From the NCBI GenBank assembly GCA_964628055.1, contig CAZVNL010000003.1, positions 1,795-65,794 of the forward strand: 64,000 bases of DNA, read 5' to 3'. Made by a program: the position numbers and the translations under genes. Source of the DNA: an uncultured bacterium (GTDB taxonomy: Bacteria > Fidelibacterota > Marinisomatia > Marinisomatales > TCS56). The notes beneath the pieces are model-generated. The model did no database searches. It was not told the DNA's origin and was given only the letters and a program-made list of their open reading frames with translations. Of this stretch, positions 10,620 through 19,567 are shown in pieces (position 1 is the stretch's first letter; every line of letters begins with the position of its first letter).

Positions 10620-11849
10620 ATGAATACACTACGACGCTCCGCAGTCGTCCTGCTTCTTGGAATCGCCCTACCGGGACTTTCCTACAGTCAGGTGGAAGAA
10701 CAGGAAGTAGAGACTAACCTGGAAGATACGGGGGACCAATTAGAACAATGGGGGAACCGCATGGACGAGTGGGGTCAGGAGGTGGAACAAGCGGTAGAGG
10801 CCGGGCGACCCATTCCCGAGCTGCCAGCCCTTTCGTTGAATCCCGAAGATGAGCGCGGGGTAAAATTGGGTCTCTATCTTGACGACCTCGATTTCGAAGA
10901 GGCCTACGAGCGGCACTATCCAGAAAACTACGGCGTGCTCATCACCGGTGTGGTGAAGGGGGGTAACGCCGACCAGGCCGGGCTGGTTAAAGGCGATATT
11001 ATCATGGAATTCGATGGCGAAAAAGTGCGCTTCGAAGACCATCTCATCAGCCTGCGGGACACCAAGCATGTTGGGGATACGGCGGAGGTAAAATTTTTCC
11101 GGAATGAAAAAATCTTAACCACGAAAATCTACTTCCTACCTCCGGCGCCTGAGGTTGACAAAAAAGGGAAGCCTATCTCCAAGAAAAAACTCTCCCCTGG
11201 CTATGGAGGGGGTGGATTTCAAACTCTGGTCATCGATTACGACTTTCCCGAAATTCGAGAGTATCTCCAATTGAACGGTTTCAAAGACCTGAACTCCGGT
11301 TACATGGTAACCTTTGGTGGGGGTGGCATGGGTACCATCGGCAAAGGTTGGTTCATCGGTGGCATGGGAGCCGGTCTCACTAACGAACAAAAAATCCAGG
11401 TGTTGGATAGTGACAACGCTCTCATTGGCTATCGTAAGTATCGGCTGGACTTTGGTTACGGTGGGGCTACCATCACCAAAAGATATCCCGTCTTCACTGA
11501 GCGACTCGTGCTCGATCTAAGCATCATGCTTGGCGGCGGGGCCGTTAACCTGACCGTTAGCCAGACCGACGGAAATTTTTCCTGGGGTAATAGGGTGGAC
11601 AACGGTGAAACCTATTCAGTCACCTACAAGAAAGACTTCTTTGTCTATCGTCCTTCCCTCGGCTTGTTGATTCGCATCAAGAACTGGGTGGGAATTCACG
11701 GTTCGGTGGGCTACTTCGGTACCTACACCACCGACCAGAGTTGGACCGACGACCTGTTCGACTTTACCGTAACGCCAGCGACCGGAAAATCTTCACCAGC
11801 GCTTCCTAAAACGCCTTCTTATTCACTGGGGTTTTGGTTCGGCTTCTAA
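10620..11849 (+). CDS. secreted PDZ-domain protein fused to a predicted outer-membrane beta-barrel
   Basis: 409 aa. It has a signal peptide (VVLLLGIALPGLSYSQ), an acidic segment and a PDZ signature (GVLITGVVKGGNADQAGLVKGDIIMEFDG). The C-terminal 220 aa or so are Gly-rich with alternating hydrophobic residues and end in GFWFGF (terminal Phe). Confidence 0.65.
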   Translation: MNTLRRSAVVLLLGIALPGLSYSQVEEQEVETNLEDTGDQLEQWGNRMDEWGQEVEQAVEAGRPIPELPALSLNPEDERGVKLGLYLDDLDFEEAYERHYPENYGVLITGVVKGGNADQAGLVKGDIIMEFDGEKVRFEDHLISLRDTKHVGDTAEVKFFRNEKILTTKIYFLPPAPEVDKKGKPISKKKLSPGYGGGGFQTLVIDYDFPEIREYLQLNGFKDLNSGYMVTFGGGGMGTIGKGWFIGGMGAGLTNEQKIQVLDSDNALIGYRKYRLDFGYGGATITKRYPVFTERLVLDLSIMLGGGAVNLTVSQTDGNFSWGNRVDNGETYSVTYKKDFFVYRPSLGLLIRIKNWVGIHGSVGYFGTYTTDQSWTDDLFDFTVTPATGKSSPALPKTPSYSLGFWFGF

Positions 11850-15211: not shown

Positions 15212-16558
15212 TTATTTCAGCACAACCAGCTTCCGCGTCTGCGTAAAGTCTCCGGCTCGTAGGCGATACAAGTAAACACTGGCTGGTACCTTCTGGCCCT
15301 GGGTACCCTTCCCGTCCCAAATAAGGGTTTTATAGCCTGCTTCTTGCACGTTATTAATCAACTGTCGTACTTCCCGGCCTAATAAATTGTAAATCAATAA
15401 TTTAGCCTGCAATCTTTCCGGTAAATCATAGCAAATCATGGTGGTGGGATTGAAAGGGTTGGGATAATTCTGGTGGAGGGCAAACGACTTTGGTATAACA
15501 GAACCATTATCTTGAGTGGATAATAACAAGTCATTTCGAATAATATAGTCCGTCATTAAAATCAGCCACACAAGCATAAATCCCGGATACTGCCACACCT
15601 TCTGCGACACTAGGCGTATCGTAATAGCCTACATGCTAGGGGTTGGCGGGGTTTGTGACATCAATGATCTGTAAGCCTGCATTACCCGCAGCCACATAGG
15701 CATAATCGTCATTTACAGCTACATCGAGAGGTCCCCCATTGTAACAATATCCCACTTCTTGGGGAGCGGTGGGATCGGTAACGTCAATAATCCACAAATC
15801 ATCACCGGTAACCGTCAGATAAATATAATTCCCGCTCAGAGCCACACCATGCGCAGTTCCACTCACTTCATAATAGCCCACTTCCAGCGGGCTATACGGA
15901 GTGGTTATATCGACAATCCGCAAAAACCTCCCGCTCCAGCGGCCAAATAAGCATAATTCCCACGTATAGTCACATCATAGGCAATCTGCAGCGTAAAAGA
16001 TCCTACCTCCTGGGGAACGGTAGGATCGCTGATGTCAATGATACGCAAACCACCACCCAAGGCCGCCACGCAGGCGAATCTATCGTTCACAGCCATTCCA
16101 ATCGCTTGACCAAAGGTATTAAGACGCCCCACCTCTATCGGATTCGAAGGATTAGCCACGTCAATGATATATAAACTATCTCCACCGCTCACCAAGTAAG
16201 CATAAGAGCCCCCCACAGCAATATCTATTAGCCCGGAGATAATATAATCCCCTAACTCCACCAGGCTGTCCGGATCAAAAATATCCACAATTTCCAAATA
16301 CACACCATTGCCAAAATAGAGGATATTATCAACTACGGTTACACCATGGCAGTAACCGCTTCCCAAGTGGGCAATGAGAGTGGTGTTACCGTCAATAGCA
16401 AAACGGTCGGTATGGCCCATAACTGCCTTTAACTCTTCACTTAGAACCCGTGCGAAAGGATTAACTTTTGTTCCCCATCCATGAACCGGATAAGGAATGT
16501 CTTGTTGGGCAAACAGCACAGTCATAGTAAATAGTACTAAAACCGAACTACGTTGCAC
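15212..16558 (-). pseudogene. LVIVD-repeat beta-propeller protein with a T9SS C-terminal sorting domain, disrupted by one in-frame TAG and two frameshifts
   Basis: Three track ORFs (15905..16558, 15636..15923, 15212..15610) are pieces of one gene. The pieces carry a GTG start with AGGAG RBS plus signal peptide, LVIVD repeats (LRIIDISDPTVPQEVG, LQIIDVTNPANP) and a CTD (NYPNPFNPTT..VYLYRL..). The lesions are detailed in the findings. Confidence 0.7.
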
Positions 16559-16688
16559 GCTTTACTCCTATTGACATTGATTGTTTAGCTCTCGGAAACA
16601 ACAATCTAGGCATGCTATACCTATTATTGGAAAAGATAATAGGCCTTACGATTAAAAATTGTCCCGGCATAACGGCCTTGAGCGTACG

Positions 16689-18701
16689 TCAGTACTTATT
16701 ATGGTATAGCATATACTTGGCCCCTTCGTACAGCGCTATAGCGTAATGCCGATAAGCCTGATAAATTCCAGGATAGTCAGCGCGCATATCAAATAACGGC
16801 GTATCGCTATTTAACCGATGGAGATTATCCCCCGATCCATCGAGAAAGACCTGTAGATAAAAATCCTGGCCCACGACCCCAAAGCTGGGAGGCGACAATT
16901 TCTTATTGATGACTAGTGCCAGGGGTTCCTGACCCTGCAGATGGAGCACATCCCGACCCATGGTCTGGGCTCGATAGGATACCCCCGTTAGGCTTAATAC
17001 CGTAGGCAACACATCGGTGAGGCTGCACACCGTACTTACCGTGCGGGGTTCGGGCAGGTACTCCGGGCCGTAGATGATGAAGGGAATATGGTAAGAGCGT
17101 AACTTTAAATCAAAATCCGCTGGCGGCATGTGGTAGGCTTTAGGGTCGGCGCGGCCATGATCGGCCACTAACACAAACACGGTCTGCTTAAAATAAGGGG
17201 CCGACCGGGCCAGGCGGAGAAATTCCCCCAAGGAGTGATCGAGTAAGCGCATGGCGTTGTATTGGTCTAAAGATTGGAACCCAGCCCGACGTAGGGAATC
17301 TTCGGGAACGGAGCGTACCTTGAACCCGGCATTATCCTCTGGGATGGAATAGGGTTTGTGATTGGTGGCCGTTTGAATGATCGCTAAAAAGGGACTCTCC
17401 AGCGGACGGGAACGAAAGAGCTCATGGGCTTCCCGGAACAGGTCCAAGTCGGAAATCCCCCATACGTCCAGGCGGGGACGATCAAAATCATCCATCTCCA
17501 GCAAGGTTAAACCGGGGAGATTGTAAGTAATCAGGTTACGGATGCTGGCCCAACTGGCGCTTCCCCCTAACAGGAAATACAATTGGTATTCCTTCAAACC
17601 CGAGAGTGGTATATATTGTTCCCGAATCAGGGGATTACGAGAGGAGGTGCGTACCTGAGCCACATCCGGGATACCCGTTAGCAGGGCAAAAACCGATCGG
17701 GCCGTTCCCACATAGGGCACGTAACATCGCTCGAAGAAAAGGCCATGATCAATGAGACGGTCTAAAGTAGGGGTCGCATTGAGGGGATTGCCCAGGGTTC
17801 TCAGGCGGTTGACCCCCACCGACTCCAGGAGGATAATGACAATATTGGGAGGCGGTTGACCACCGTTCAAGGGGGTTGGATTAACCACGCGGCGGAAGTT
17901 CAAACGCAAGGAATCCTTTTCCTCCACCCCCAACCAGTCGGCTAACAAGTCGTAATTACGACGGACGGCGACTTCATCGTAATCCTGCTTCTGGAATTGG
18001 ATGGTAGTGTAAAAATATAATACTGGATTTAAGGCCAGGGAGGACACAAAAGGATTCGTGCTGAAGGTAGTATCACTCCACAGCAACCGGTATTGGGCTA
18101 AGGTTCCCCAATAACCAATCAGTAACAACGCGGAGGTAAGTACCACGCCCGCGATTTTCTGTTTCCGGGGAATAAGCTGCGAGGATTTCAAAACGGTACC
18201 TTGCAGCAACCTGACAAACAAGCGATCCAATAAGAACACACACCCCACCAACCCTATCACAATCCAGACCAGGGGATAGGATTCCCACAACATCTGGAGC
18301 GCGATCAATGGATCCTCCAACAGGTTCAGGGCCACGATGTCAAGCCGTTGCTTCAGGTAGGCGTAGTGTCCTAAGTCAAAGGCATAAAAAACATTCAACA
18401 GCGCAACGCTTATTCCCCAGTACGCTCGGGCCAACGTCCTGATCTCAGGGCGACTGGTTACATTAACCTTGGGCAAAAGCGTCAACACGATTAACGGTAA
18501 GGTACCGAGAATCGCCAGACGGAGGTCGAAGCGTACCCCGAGCCATAGGGCGCGCCAAATCTCGGCACTCGTCGCGGACGTGGTCTCTCCAGCAAAAAAA
18601 ATAAGGAAAAGAAGACGATAAAACACATTCAACACCCCGTACAATCCCACACTTCCCAGGAGGAAGCGGAGGCGCCGGGAGCGATAAAATTTAAATGGCA
18701 C
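16689..18701 (-). CDS. LTA synthase / phosphoglycerol-transferase family protein (membrane-anchored sulfatase-fold enzyme)
   Basis: 670 aa. The N-terminal part has about 5 TM helices. The C-terminal part is an alkaline-phosphatase/sulfatase-type domain (IVIILLESVG.., ..VADHG). GTG start. Confidence 0.75.
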   Translation of the reverse strand: MPFKFYRSRRLRFLLGSVGLYGVLNVFYRLLFLIFFAGETTSATSAEIWRALWLGVRFDLRLAILGTLPLIVLTLLPKVNVTSRPEIRTLARAYWGISVALLNVFYAFDLGHYAYLKQRLDIVALNLLEDPLIALQMLWESYPLVWIVIGLVGCVFLLDRLFVRLLQGTVLKSSQLIPRKQKIAGVVLTSALLLIGYWGTLAQYRLLWSDTTFSTNPFVSSLALNPVLYFYTTIQFQKQDYDEVAVRRNYDLLADWLGVEEKDSLRLNFRRVVNPTPLNGGQPPPNIVIILLESVGVNRLRTLGNPLNATPTLDRLIDHGLFFERCYVPYVGTARSVFALLTGIPDVAQVRTSSRNPLIREQYIPLSGLKEYQLYFLLGGSASWASIRNLITYNLPGLTLLEMDDFDRPRLDVWGISDLDLFREAHELFRSRPLESPFLAIIQTATNHKPYSIPEDNAGFKVRSVPEDSLRRAGFQSLDQYNAMRLLDHSLGEFLRLARSAPYFKQTVFVLVADHGRADPKAYHMPPADFDLKLRSYHIPFIIYGPEYLPEPRTVSTVCSLTDVLPTVLSLTGVSYRAQTMGRDVLHLQGQEPLALVINKKLSPPSFGVVGQDFYLQVFLDGSGDNLHRLNSDTPLFDMRADYPGIYQAYRHYAIALYEGAKYMLYHNKY

Positions 18702-18727
18702 GTTTAGACCGCAAGAACGTCACGTGT

Positions 18728-19186
18728 TCAGCCACTAAGGTCCTGGAGTACCTCCTGGGCGTGGGCCTTTACCTTCACTTTCGGATAGGCCCTGTCAATA
18801 CGCCCCTCCTCGTCGATCACATAGGTTATACGGTGGATGCCTTCGTATTCCTGTCCCATGAATTTTTTCGGCCCCCAGGCATGGTATGCCTGCAAGGTTG
18901 CGTGACTCTCATCGCAGAGCAGGGGAAAGGGAAAGGCATACTTTTCGGCAAACTTTCTCTGCTTAGCCGGCGGGTCAGCACTCATCCCTATAATAGCGAC
19001 CCCCTGCTTTTCAAACGACTGGAATTCATCCCGGAATCCCTGGCCTTCCACAATTCAGCCCGGGGTATTGGCTTTGGGGAAAAACCAGAGGACCACTTTT
19101 TGCCCTCGATAGTCACGAAGGGTAATGTCTTCTCCGTAGGCATTCGGCAAGGTGAAAACAGGTGCTGTTGCTCCAATTTCAAGCAT
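18728..19186 (-). CDS. bcp: thiol peroxidase Bcp/PrxQ with an in-frame TGA (candidate selenocysteine) at the peroxidatic position
   Basis: ATG 19186 with GGAG 8 nt upstream. The translation reads MLEIGATAPVFTLPNAYGEDITLRDYRGQKVVLWFFPKANTPG-[TGA 19057..19055]-IVEGQGFRDEF... in a single frame. It is colinear with E. coli Bcp (..[20 protein letters not shown]..). The track shows only the 107-aa part after the TGA. Confidence 0.65.
19021..19040 (-). other. candidate SECIS-like stem-loop downstream of the in-frame UGA
   Basis: In the RNA, GGGAUUC-CGGGAU-GAAUUCC forms a 7-bp stem (one G-U) with a G-rich 6-nt loop. The loop begins 21 nt after the UGA. The fold was drawn by hand only. Confidence 0.3.
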
Positions 19187-19567
19187 AGTATCTCCTTTTC
19201 AAAAGATTATTTCACATGGGAGTAAATTACAAAATAATGACCCCTCAAACGATGGTTTGGAAGGAAATCTAACCCTCCCTGGAACAGAAATTGGGCCTAT
19301 CAAAATCAGGGTGCTGTTTCCATCCTACCCAGCCACATTAAGGATAGTAAAAGTGGTGAACTTCCTAATTTCAATAATAGATACAAGATAACCCAACATA
19401 CTATAAGAAAAACCGTTAATATGTCCTTGTAAATATTTATGAACACCTCGATTAGCCATCATGTATCGTGCTATTATCGAAGTCTTAAGGGTGTCATTAG
19501 GAAGTTTCCCTCGCAATCCGTTGATTTTACAGTGAGTTTTCCAAGTTGGGAAAATTTATCAACAGAC

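Follow-up and report, generated by a model that had tools for sequence, protein, structure and literature searches.

We analyzed a 64,000-nucleotide (nt) stretch of DNA from an uncultured bacterium (the window) and conclude that positions 18728..19186 of its minus strand very probably hold a single gene for a 152-residue peroxiredoxin of the Bcp/PrxQ type, in which UGA codon 44 would specify a peroxidatic selenocysteine (Sec). An earlier note on this DNA, made from the sequence alone, had proposed Sec recoding of the catalytic Cys codon of this gene (bcp), and its proposal is supported by a conserved TGA, by purifying selection, and by a downstream hairpin that resembles a selenocysteine insertion sequence (SECIS).

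A peroxiredoxin reading frame with one internal UGA

The minus strand of this region contains one Bcp/PrxQ peroxiredoxin gene of 152 codons, followed by a stop codon at 18730..18728. Translated from the ATG at 19186..19184, the frame reads MLEIGATAPVFTLPNAYGEDITLRDYRGQKVVLWFFPKANTPG*IVEGQGFRDEF...LSG* (asterisks mark stops), and its sole internal stop is the TGA at 19057..19055. Re-reading the frame confirmed the position of the TGA given in the earlier note, as well as its remark that the open reading frame (ORF) track holds only a 107-residue piece. The features of the gene are listed below, with the evidence for each in parentheses.

18728..19186, minus strand: predicted complete gene for a Sec-containing Bcp/PrxQ peroxiredoxin (translation; Pfam AhpC-TSA; NCBIfam NF006960; colinear with PDB 5enu and 5iph over residues 3-150)
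19192..19196, minus strand: Shine-Dalgarno sequence AGGAG, with a 5-nt spacer to the ATG at 19186 (sequence)
19055..19057, minus strand: UGA codon 44, predicted to be read as Sec at the peroxidatic position (assemblies, syntenic lineage, related loci)
19055..19078, minus strand: active-site motif P37-K-A-N-T41-P-G-U44, or PxxxTxxU (sequence; near-invariant WFFPKANTPGU in orthologues)
18830..18832, minus strand: codon of the conserved catalytic Arg119, in GIHRITY (alignment)
18728..19051, minus strand: mis-called 107-residue C-terminal fragment, an ORF with a GTG start (ORF list)

For protein profile searches, the Sec position was entered as Cys. The product matches Pfam AhpC-TSA (PF00578) with an E value of 2.8e-35 and a score of 121.4 bits against a cutoff of 26, and over residues 2-150 it passes the equivalog cutoff of NCBIfam NF006960 (thioredoxin-dependent thiol peroxidase, Bcp), scoring 164.9 bits where the curated cutoff is 140. 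It is colinear over its full length with Cys-type Bcp/PrxQ proteins (E. coli Bcp; Xanthomonas campestris PrxQ, PDB 5iiz/5iph; 5enu), with E values of 1e-25 to 3e-31, and has in common with them the catalytic Arg and the PxxxTxxC motif, except that Sec would take the place of the peroxidatic Cys. The UGA aligns to the peroxidatic Cys of PKDNTPGC in 5enu and of PKDSTPGC in 5iph; the corresponding PxxxTxxU motif has been described for Sec-peroxiredoxins (PMC13188914). Arg119 is invariant in 45 of 45 aligned orthologues and lies opposite the Arg of GIERSTF in solved BCP structures. The earlier note's assignment of the protein to Bcp/PrxQ is thus borne out by Pfam, by NF006960, and by alignment to solved structures, which also place the TGA where that note had put it, exactly on the catalytic Cys of TPGC.

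The window protein differs from E. coli Bcp at a second redox position. Residue 49, at +5 from the peroxidatic residue, is Gln in place of the resolving Cys that characterizes the atypical 2-Cys class to which E. coli Bcp belongs; the earlier note had also read this residue as Gln, describing a 1-Sec enzyme. Most Sec-type orthologues likewise have Q or K here. Some retain a Cys at +5 (UxxxxC; loci L043-L045, L047, and L055 in our numbering), and in these a selenenylsulfide could form. The only Cys of the window protein, C91, varies among C, S, and A in orthologues and is not a conserved resolving residue. Given the Gln at +5 and the lack of conservation of C91, the oxidized enzyme is probably recycled directly by an external reductant. 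By analogy with peroxiredoxin biochemistry, the U44 selenolate, activated by T41 and R119, would attack the peroxide and be converted to a selenenic acid, and a thioredoxin- or glutaredoxin-type reductant would then restore the enzyme by a 1-Sec mechanism.

Elsewhere in the window TGA behaves as an ordinary stop codon. It terminates 20 of the 51 long ORFs, which together span 90% of the window, and it is the stop of the HIT gene (591) and of the DUF4390 gene (12536). The genetic code is therefore standard, as the earlier note had held from the stops of HIT and the DUF4390-like gene.

The UGA is conserved across species and flanked by sequence under purifying selection

The DNA around the TGA is identical in three independent Logan assemblies (ERR2834521, ERR2834522, and SRR350561), and the window's own contig is present in two further ENA assemblies, ERZ27248470 and ERZ4201062, which are also identical around the TGA. 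A lineage about 85% identical in DNA (JGI 3300038380; NCBI metagenome-assembled genome [MAG] CAZBEL010000038; loci L004/L005) has the gene order RadA-Tgt-NUDIX-Bcp-sulfatase-like in common with the window and retains the TGA. Differences between this lineage and the window fall mainly at third codon positions on both sides of the TGA, and the AGGAG Shine-Dalgarno sequence is kept at a similar distance from the start codon.

We scanned one genome for each GTDB species and obtained 49 related loci. Codon 44 is TGA in 39 of these and TGT or TGC in nine, and the motif is absent from one; the scan relied on peptide patterns such as WFFPKANT, so these fractions do not represent an unbiased census. 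Among the loci with TGA, the named taxa are mostly Marinimicrobia, Neomarinimicrobiota, or Fidelibacterota, many others are unclassified MAGs, and four belong to Acidobacteriota/Thermoanaerobaculia. Complete genomes among the relatives have the Sec-type gene as well, one example being the Fidelibacterota chromosome OZ252221.1 (L035). The nine TGT/TGC loci come from Myxococcota, a few Marinimicrobia, and more distant phyla. These data show that the UGA is conserved across many species. The earlier note had named uniform TGC or TGT among relatives as grounds for abandoning its proposal, and the 39 TGA loci do not bear out that pattern.

We estimated the ratio of nonsynonymous to synonymous substitution rates (dN/dS) by the Nei-Gojobori method, treating codons 1-43 and 45-148 separately and using unsaturated pairs. 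Between the window and L010, dN/dS is 0.12 for codons 1-43 and 0.02 for codons 45-148. Values for other pairs range from 0.03 to 0.57, the maximum being a small-count comparison of the N-terminal segments of L011 and L015. On the 3' side of the TGA (codons 45-148), all unsaturated pairs lie between 0.02 and 0.17. Together with the full-length alignment, this range answers a question posed in the earlier note, whether conservation runs past the codon: it does. The bcp gene is intact, and purifying selection acts on both sides of the UGA.

A hairpin downstream of the UGA is conserved at the RNA level

Two further features, both within the coding sequence, lie 3' of the UGA.

19021..19040, minus strand: candidate core of a bacterial SECIS (bSECIS), with a 7-bp stem GGGAUUC/GAAUUCC and loop CGGGAU (folding and comparative data)
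19017..19045, minus strand: putative extended form of the SECIS, in which a lower stem of 3 bp, GGC/GUC, encloses the core (structure prediction on the window sequence)

The stem of the core hairpin (19040..19021) begins 14 nt past the UGA and its apical loop 21 nt past it. This hairpin is both the minimum free energy (MFE) structure and the centroid structure of the local 39-mer, at -9.0 kcal/mol; the core stem, which includes one G-U pair, accounts for only about -6 kcal/mol when taken alone. The bSECIS criteria quoted in PMC13188914 call for 3-9 nt in the loop, 4-16 bp in the upper stem, a G in the first two loop positions that is typically followed by G or U, a distance of 16-37 nt from UGA to loop, and an MFE of -7.5 kcal/mol or lower. 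All of these ranges accommodate the window hairpin, which has a 6-nt loop with G at position 2 followed by another G, a 7-bp stem, a UGA-to-loop distance of 21 nt, and an MFE of -9.0 kcal/mol. The SECIS elements of E. coli fdhF and fdnG and the consensus bSECIS (quoted in PMC13188914) are similarly hairpins inside the ORF just 3' of the UGA, with a small apical loop that carries G and then G or U and starts 16-37 nt past the UGA. The window hairpin has no sequence similarity to the two E. coli elements, and its stem is short by comparison. A scan of the whole window at Rfam gathering thresholds gave zero matches, and there is no curated family for the bcp hairpin.

The hairpin GGGAUUC-CGKGAY-GAAUUCC is the MFE structure in most Marinimicrobia-type orthologues; its loop starts with C-G-G in the window and with C-G-U in about half of the orthologues. 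When the named helix was scored over an alignment of 39 orthologues, 90.1% of cells were paired, compared with 11-65% when the 3' partner was slid along the alignment. Three of the seven helix pairs contain double changes (12 cells in all; A-U to G-C, G-C to U-A or C-G), and the covariation score of the helix was reached by 0 of 500 shuffles.

Codon choice within the hairpin is also strongly constrained. Phe codons in the two stem arms are TTC in 63 of 64 cases, compared with 82 of 299 elsewhere in the same genes (Fisher p ~1e-28, uncorrected for phylogeny). The Gly codon of the stem is GGR in 34 of 34 cases, against about half elsewhere, the Glu codon of the stem is GAA in 35 of 35, and the Arg codon of the loop is CGG or CGT in 34 of 34, whereas only 43 of 115 Arg codons elsewhere take these forms. 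This bias in the loop Arg codon yields the G[G|U] signature that has been published for loops of the bSECIS consensus (PMC13188914). The hairpin is thus conserved at the RNA level, as shown by compensatory changes and by strong constraint at synonymous sites, and the synonymous sites provide the clearest evidence that it is a SECIS. The earlier note had listed the lack of a conserved downstream structure among the outcomes that would tell against it; what we observe is a hairpin conserved with both covariation and synonymous constraint. The lower helix of the possible extended element is variable among orthologues, and the extension is therefore weakly supported.

If the SelB/SECIS mechanism of fdhF in E. 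coli is taken as a guide, a ribosome arriving at the UGA would encounter the hairpin, which would recruit SelB-GTP-Sec-tRNA(Sec). Sec would be inserted at the UGA, and translation would continue to the true stop at 18728. We can only infer Sec insertion itself, the presence of selA, selB, selC, and selD in the genome to which the window belongs, and the identity of the reductant.

Other hairpins and Cys forms in relatives

The Sec-type bcp genes of Acidobacteriota/Thermoanaerobaculia (L053-L056) carry a different, much stronger, GC-rich hairpin of 8-11 bp (-11 to -17 kcal/mol), located about 12-35 nt after the TGA. Its GUU/GUUC loop, about 17-18 nt past the UGA, falls on Gly-Phe codons, whereas the loop of the Marinimicrobia hairpin is centered on Arg-Asp codons (CGKGAY). 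A column-wise covariation analysis of the four Acidobacteriota hairpins was dropped because their registers differ by one column.

Two single-cell genomes of low-GC, surface-ocean Marinimicrobia, L046 (AH-324-M03) and L048 (AH-287-G16), have TGT (Cys) at codon 44. In both, TTT is used, and the hairpin is gone along with its codon constraints (GGT TTT AAA GAC GAT TTC). These Cys-type genes without the hairpin are a natural control for the SECIS, and their sequences suggest that Sec was replaced by Cys in streamlined lineages.

Taken further, these comparisons raise the possibility that Sec-Bcp is near phylum-wide in Marinimicrobia/Fidelibacterota and that two unrelated SECIS hairpins, one in Marinimicrobia and one in Acidobacteriota, serve the same UGA. 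We put this forward tentatively, at somewhat less than even confidence.

Relationship to known Sec-peroxiredoxin families

Sec-peroxiredoxins with a TxxU motif, assigned to COG1225/PF00578, were reported by Zhang, Fomenko and Gladyshev in 2005 as the second most abundant known selenoprotein family of the Sargasso Sea, with 43 genes (PMC1088965), and by Zhang and Gladyshev in 2008 for Global Ocean Sampling (GOS) data, with 253 genes (PMC2398784). The window protein resembles this "Peroxiredoxin (Prx), TxxU" family in its PF00578/COG1225 (= Bcp) assignment, in its T-x-x-U motif, and in its length, which is about 151 residues in the family. An entry in the GOS supplement, JCVI_READ_1092256231692 (...IIWFFPKANTPGUTIQGCGFRDEF...), is near-identical to locus L047; another published member, AACY01006566, aligns to the window protein over 150 residues without gaps at 61% identity. 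The presence of orthologues in the supplements of PMC1088965 and PMC2398784 agrees with the earlier note's description of peroxiredoxin selenoproteins as an established class. We find no difference of substance between the family and the window protein; the window copy comes from a higher-GC, Marinimicrobia-affiliated lineage, and the 2005 and 2008 surveys dealt with reads that had no taxon assignment. The window bcp is, in short, a member of a selenoprotein family that has been known for two decades and is already published, which makes it a missed annotation rather than a discovery.

Another peroxiredoxin with Sec at the peroxidatic position is PrxU of Eubacterium acidaminophilum (NF040737), which belongs to a different Prx subfamily whose profile is 233 residues long. 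PrxU has reportedly been characterized biochemically, by Soehling and colleagues in 2001. We considered the window protein as a candidate PrxU and rejected it: it scores 30.8 bits on NF040737 against a cutoff of 270, with a match confined to its N-terminal 104 residues, and so lies outside that family.

Weighing Sec insertion against other explanations

Several observations weigh against reading the UGA as Sec. The window hairpin is no more stable than dinucleotide shuffles of the 39-mer (z = -0.10), and the MFE structure of the 71 nt past the TGA does not contain it (z = +0.58). Its stability being unremarkable, it is the comparative data, not thermodynamics, that make the case for a SECIS. 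RNAalifold found no consensus structure on the mixed alignment of 39 sequences, for which reason the named structure was scored by pair counts instead. Because the stem coincides with codons of the conserved peptide GFRDEF, its conservation is in part that of the protein. The orthologues also share ancestry, and the shuffle and Fisher statistics therefore treat them as more independent than they are.

Genes of the Sec machinery were not found in the DNA examined. ARAGORN detected no tRNA-Sec in the window, which lacks any tRNA gene, or in 46 + 5 related loci, and there was no Rfam tRNA-Sec match in the window. A tblastn search that used SelD and SelA of E. coli as probes found neither in the window nor in about 790 kb of related DNA; selB was not probed. 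Beyond the window ends, other assemblies contain no sel genes; they continue into an SSF transporter gene at one end and into genes for microcompartment shell proteins at the other. The absence of sel genes from about 75 kb of the window genome is uninformative about the genome as a whole. Our literature search found no dedicated study that links Marinimicrobia, SAR406, or Marinisomatota to selenocysteine. In a 2016 survey, Peng et al. (PMC5029168) described three SAR406 single-cell genomes, all partial, as having an "orphan SelD" and no selenoprotein genes. SelD is present in these genomes without selA or selB (PMC5029168), which shows that SelD exists in the SAR406 group.

The same SAR406 genomes, with SelD reported and selA/selB not, favor an explanation in which the UGA is read through without selenium, either by near-cognate insertion of Trp or Cys or by Cys carried on tRNA-Sec, and the hairpin is a generic stimulator of read-through. 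We consider this improbable. The hairpin fits a SelB-type bSECIS in spacing, loop size, and G[G|U] signature, and recoding falls precisely on the redox-active residue, as in the classic Sec/Cys pairing. A peroxidatic Trp would yield a dead enzyme, yet bcp is under strong purifying selection. In addition, the marine metagenomes that contain the TxxU family also hold abundant SelD along with other selenoproteins (PMC1088965, PMC2398784).

Gene callers suggest an alternative in which the region has two products: a 43-residue peptide that stops at the UGA and, by re-initiation at GTG 19051, a C-terminal protein of 107 residues. A mechanical ORF listing of the bcp frame returns just the GTG-start fragment (18728..19051), whose start codon lies 4 nt past the TGA. 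In public protein collections the 107-residue fragment forms a small separate cluster, with a 43-residue AhpC-TSA fragment called directly upstream, and standard gene callers split the gene into pieces of 43 and 85-107 residues in every public assembly examined. This GTG is not conserved, however: L004/L005 have GTA in its place, and the fragment called in them begins further downstream (with 85 residues in L004). No Shine-Dalgarno sequence precedes the GTG, neither piece would hold the peroxidatic residue, and conservation of frame and residues runs through the junction (TPGU-IVEGQGF) as in a single unit. We therefore regard two separate products as very unlikely.

A nonsense allele or pseudogene, with bcp inactivated by a Cys-to-stop change and its downstream part in decay, would account for the split gene calls and for the Sec machinery not being seen in the window and the related DNA examined. 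It would not account for the same TGA in 39 loci from different species and two phyla, recovered by many independent projects, for dN/dS values of 0.02-0.17 3' of the TGA, or for the conservation of the catalytic Arg and the full-length architecture, and a pseudogene would not retain an RNA hairpin through selection on synonymous sites. A sequencing or assembly error that turned TGC or TGT into a false TGA is conceivable in an assembly with at least one gene showing apparent frameshifts (15215..16567), but identical DNA surrounds the TGA in the five other assemblies listed above (ERR2834521, ERR2834522, SRR350561, ERZ27248470, and ERZ4201062), and the JGI and NCBI assemblies of a divergent relative carry the TGA as well. 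The shared TGA, the dN/dS values, and the independent assemblies together exclude both explanations, leaving Sec at codon 44 as the reading that we prefer.

Genomic surroundings of bcp

A gene for a 670-residue sulfatase/LTA-synthase-like protein starts at GTG 18701, 26 nt past the bcp stop (18701..18728). The adjacency of the two genes is kept in L004/L005, and they are probably co-transcribed. On the plus strand, a 176-residue ORF with an ATG start (18695..19225) runs antisense over the whole bcp gene; it is probably spurious, and since it is longer than either bcp fragment, a gene caller could choose it in their place. The spacer between NUDIX and bcp (19187..19567) measures about 380 nt in the window and about 139 nt in the L004/L005 lineage, and the sequences immediately upstream of the Shine-Dalgarno sequence are unrelated between the two lineages. 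Sigma-70-like hexamer pairs occur five times in this spacer, with 1.4 expected. Within bcp, a terminator-like stem followed by a U-run lies upstream of the UGA (19088..19107, minus strand; codons 27-36). One such site was found where 1.3 are expected by chance, so this stem is probably meaningless.

The closest named relatives of the window RadA (64-67% identity) are MAGs labeled "FCB group," "Candidatus Marinimicrobia," "Fidelibacterota," and "Neomarinimicrobiota," and the window encodes a type IX secretion system (T9SS) sorting domain. From its sequence, the organism appears to belong in or next to Marinimicrobia/Fidelibacterota. The remaining genes are housekeeping genes (EF-G, HisC, RadA, Tgt, RpoN, LptB/C, KdsA/B/C, CTP synthase, ValRS, and RecG), and a MacAB-TolC-like efflux system is also encoded.

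We found no other credible selenoprotein gene in the window when looking for adjacent same-frame ORFs joined by TGA. When U-containing ORFs from all loci were clustered, Sec-Bcp was the only credible group; all others were shadows of conserved genes, lying off-frame or antisense to them. The ORF at 10620..11849, a candidate "Trx7/PDZ (seleno)protein" (NF041199), was rejected, as it matches the PDZ domain only and scores 27 bits against a cutoff of 300.

The apparent frameshifts mentioned above concern an LVIVD-repeat protein with a T9SS C-terminal sorting domain (15215..16567, minus strand), which is spread over three ORFs with frame changes near 15923 and 15540. Its L004 orthologue is intact at 457 residues (tblastn pieces in frames -1, -3, and -1). 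The window copy is either a pseudogene or the product of indel errors in the assembly. Genes for RecG, ValRS, and a TMEM260-like protein are each split in JGI 3300002231 and intact in the window, which points to frameshift errors in the JGI assembly. Just past the right end of the window, a contig of the same organism from that assembly (L059, 1..3965) carries a cluster of BMC, EutN/CcmL, and CsoS1D-like shell genes.

Possible implications for selenium use in Marinimicrobia

The division of bcp by gene callers leads to too low a count of these organisms' main thiol peroxidase and hides the selenium dependence of Bcp in metabolic reconstructions of an abundant ocean phylum. The hairpin is one more well-supported case in which a SECIS within a coding region restricts codon choice as well as peptide sequence (GFRDEF), and the gene suggests that selenium supply matters for oxidative-stress defense in Marinimicrobia. 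Neither point would surprise a selenoprotein specialist. What is modestly new is that Sec-Bcp appears to be widespread in Marinimicrobia genomes despite the "orphan SelD" label given to SAR406, and that two phyla appear to use structurally different SECIS hairpins at the same site. If the two hairpins are truly unrelated, they would reflect either independent Cys-to-Sec conversions or turnover of the SECIS at a fixed protein site, and if L046 and L048 are correctly read, streamlined surface-ocean lineages that gave up both Sec and the hairpin would represent a further event of the same kind. If Sec-Bcp is indeed phylum-wide, the "orphan" SelD of SAR406 would simply serve Sec synthesis.

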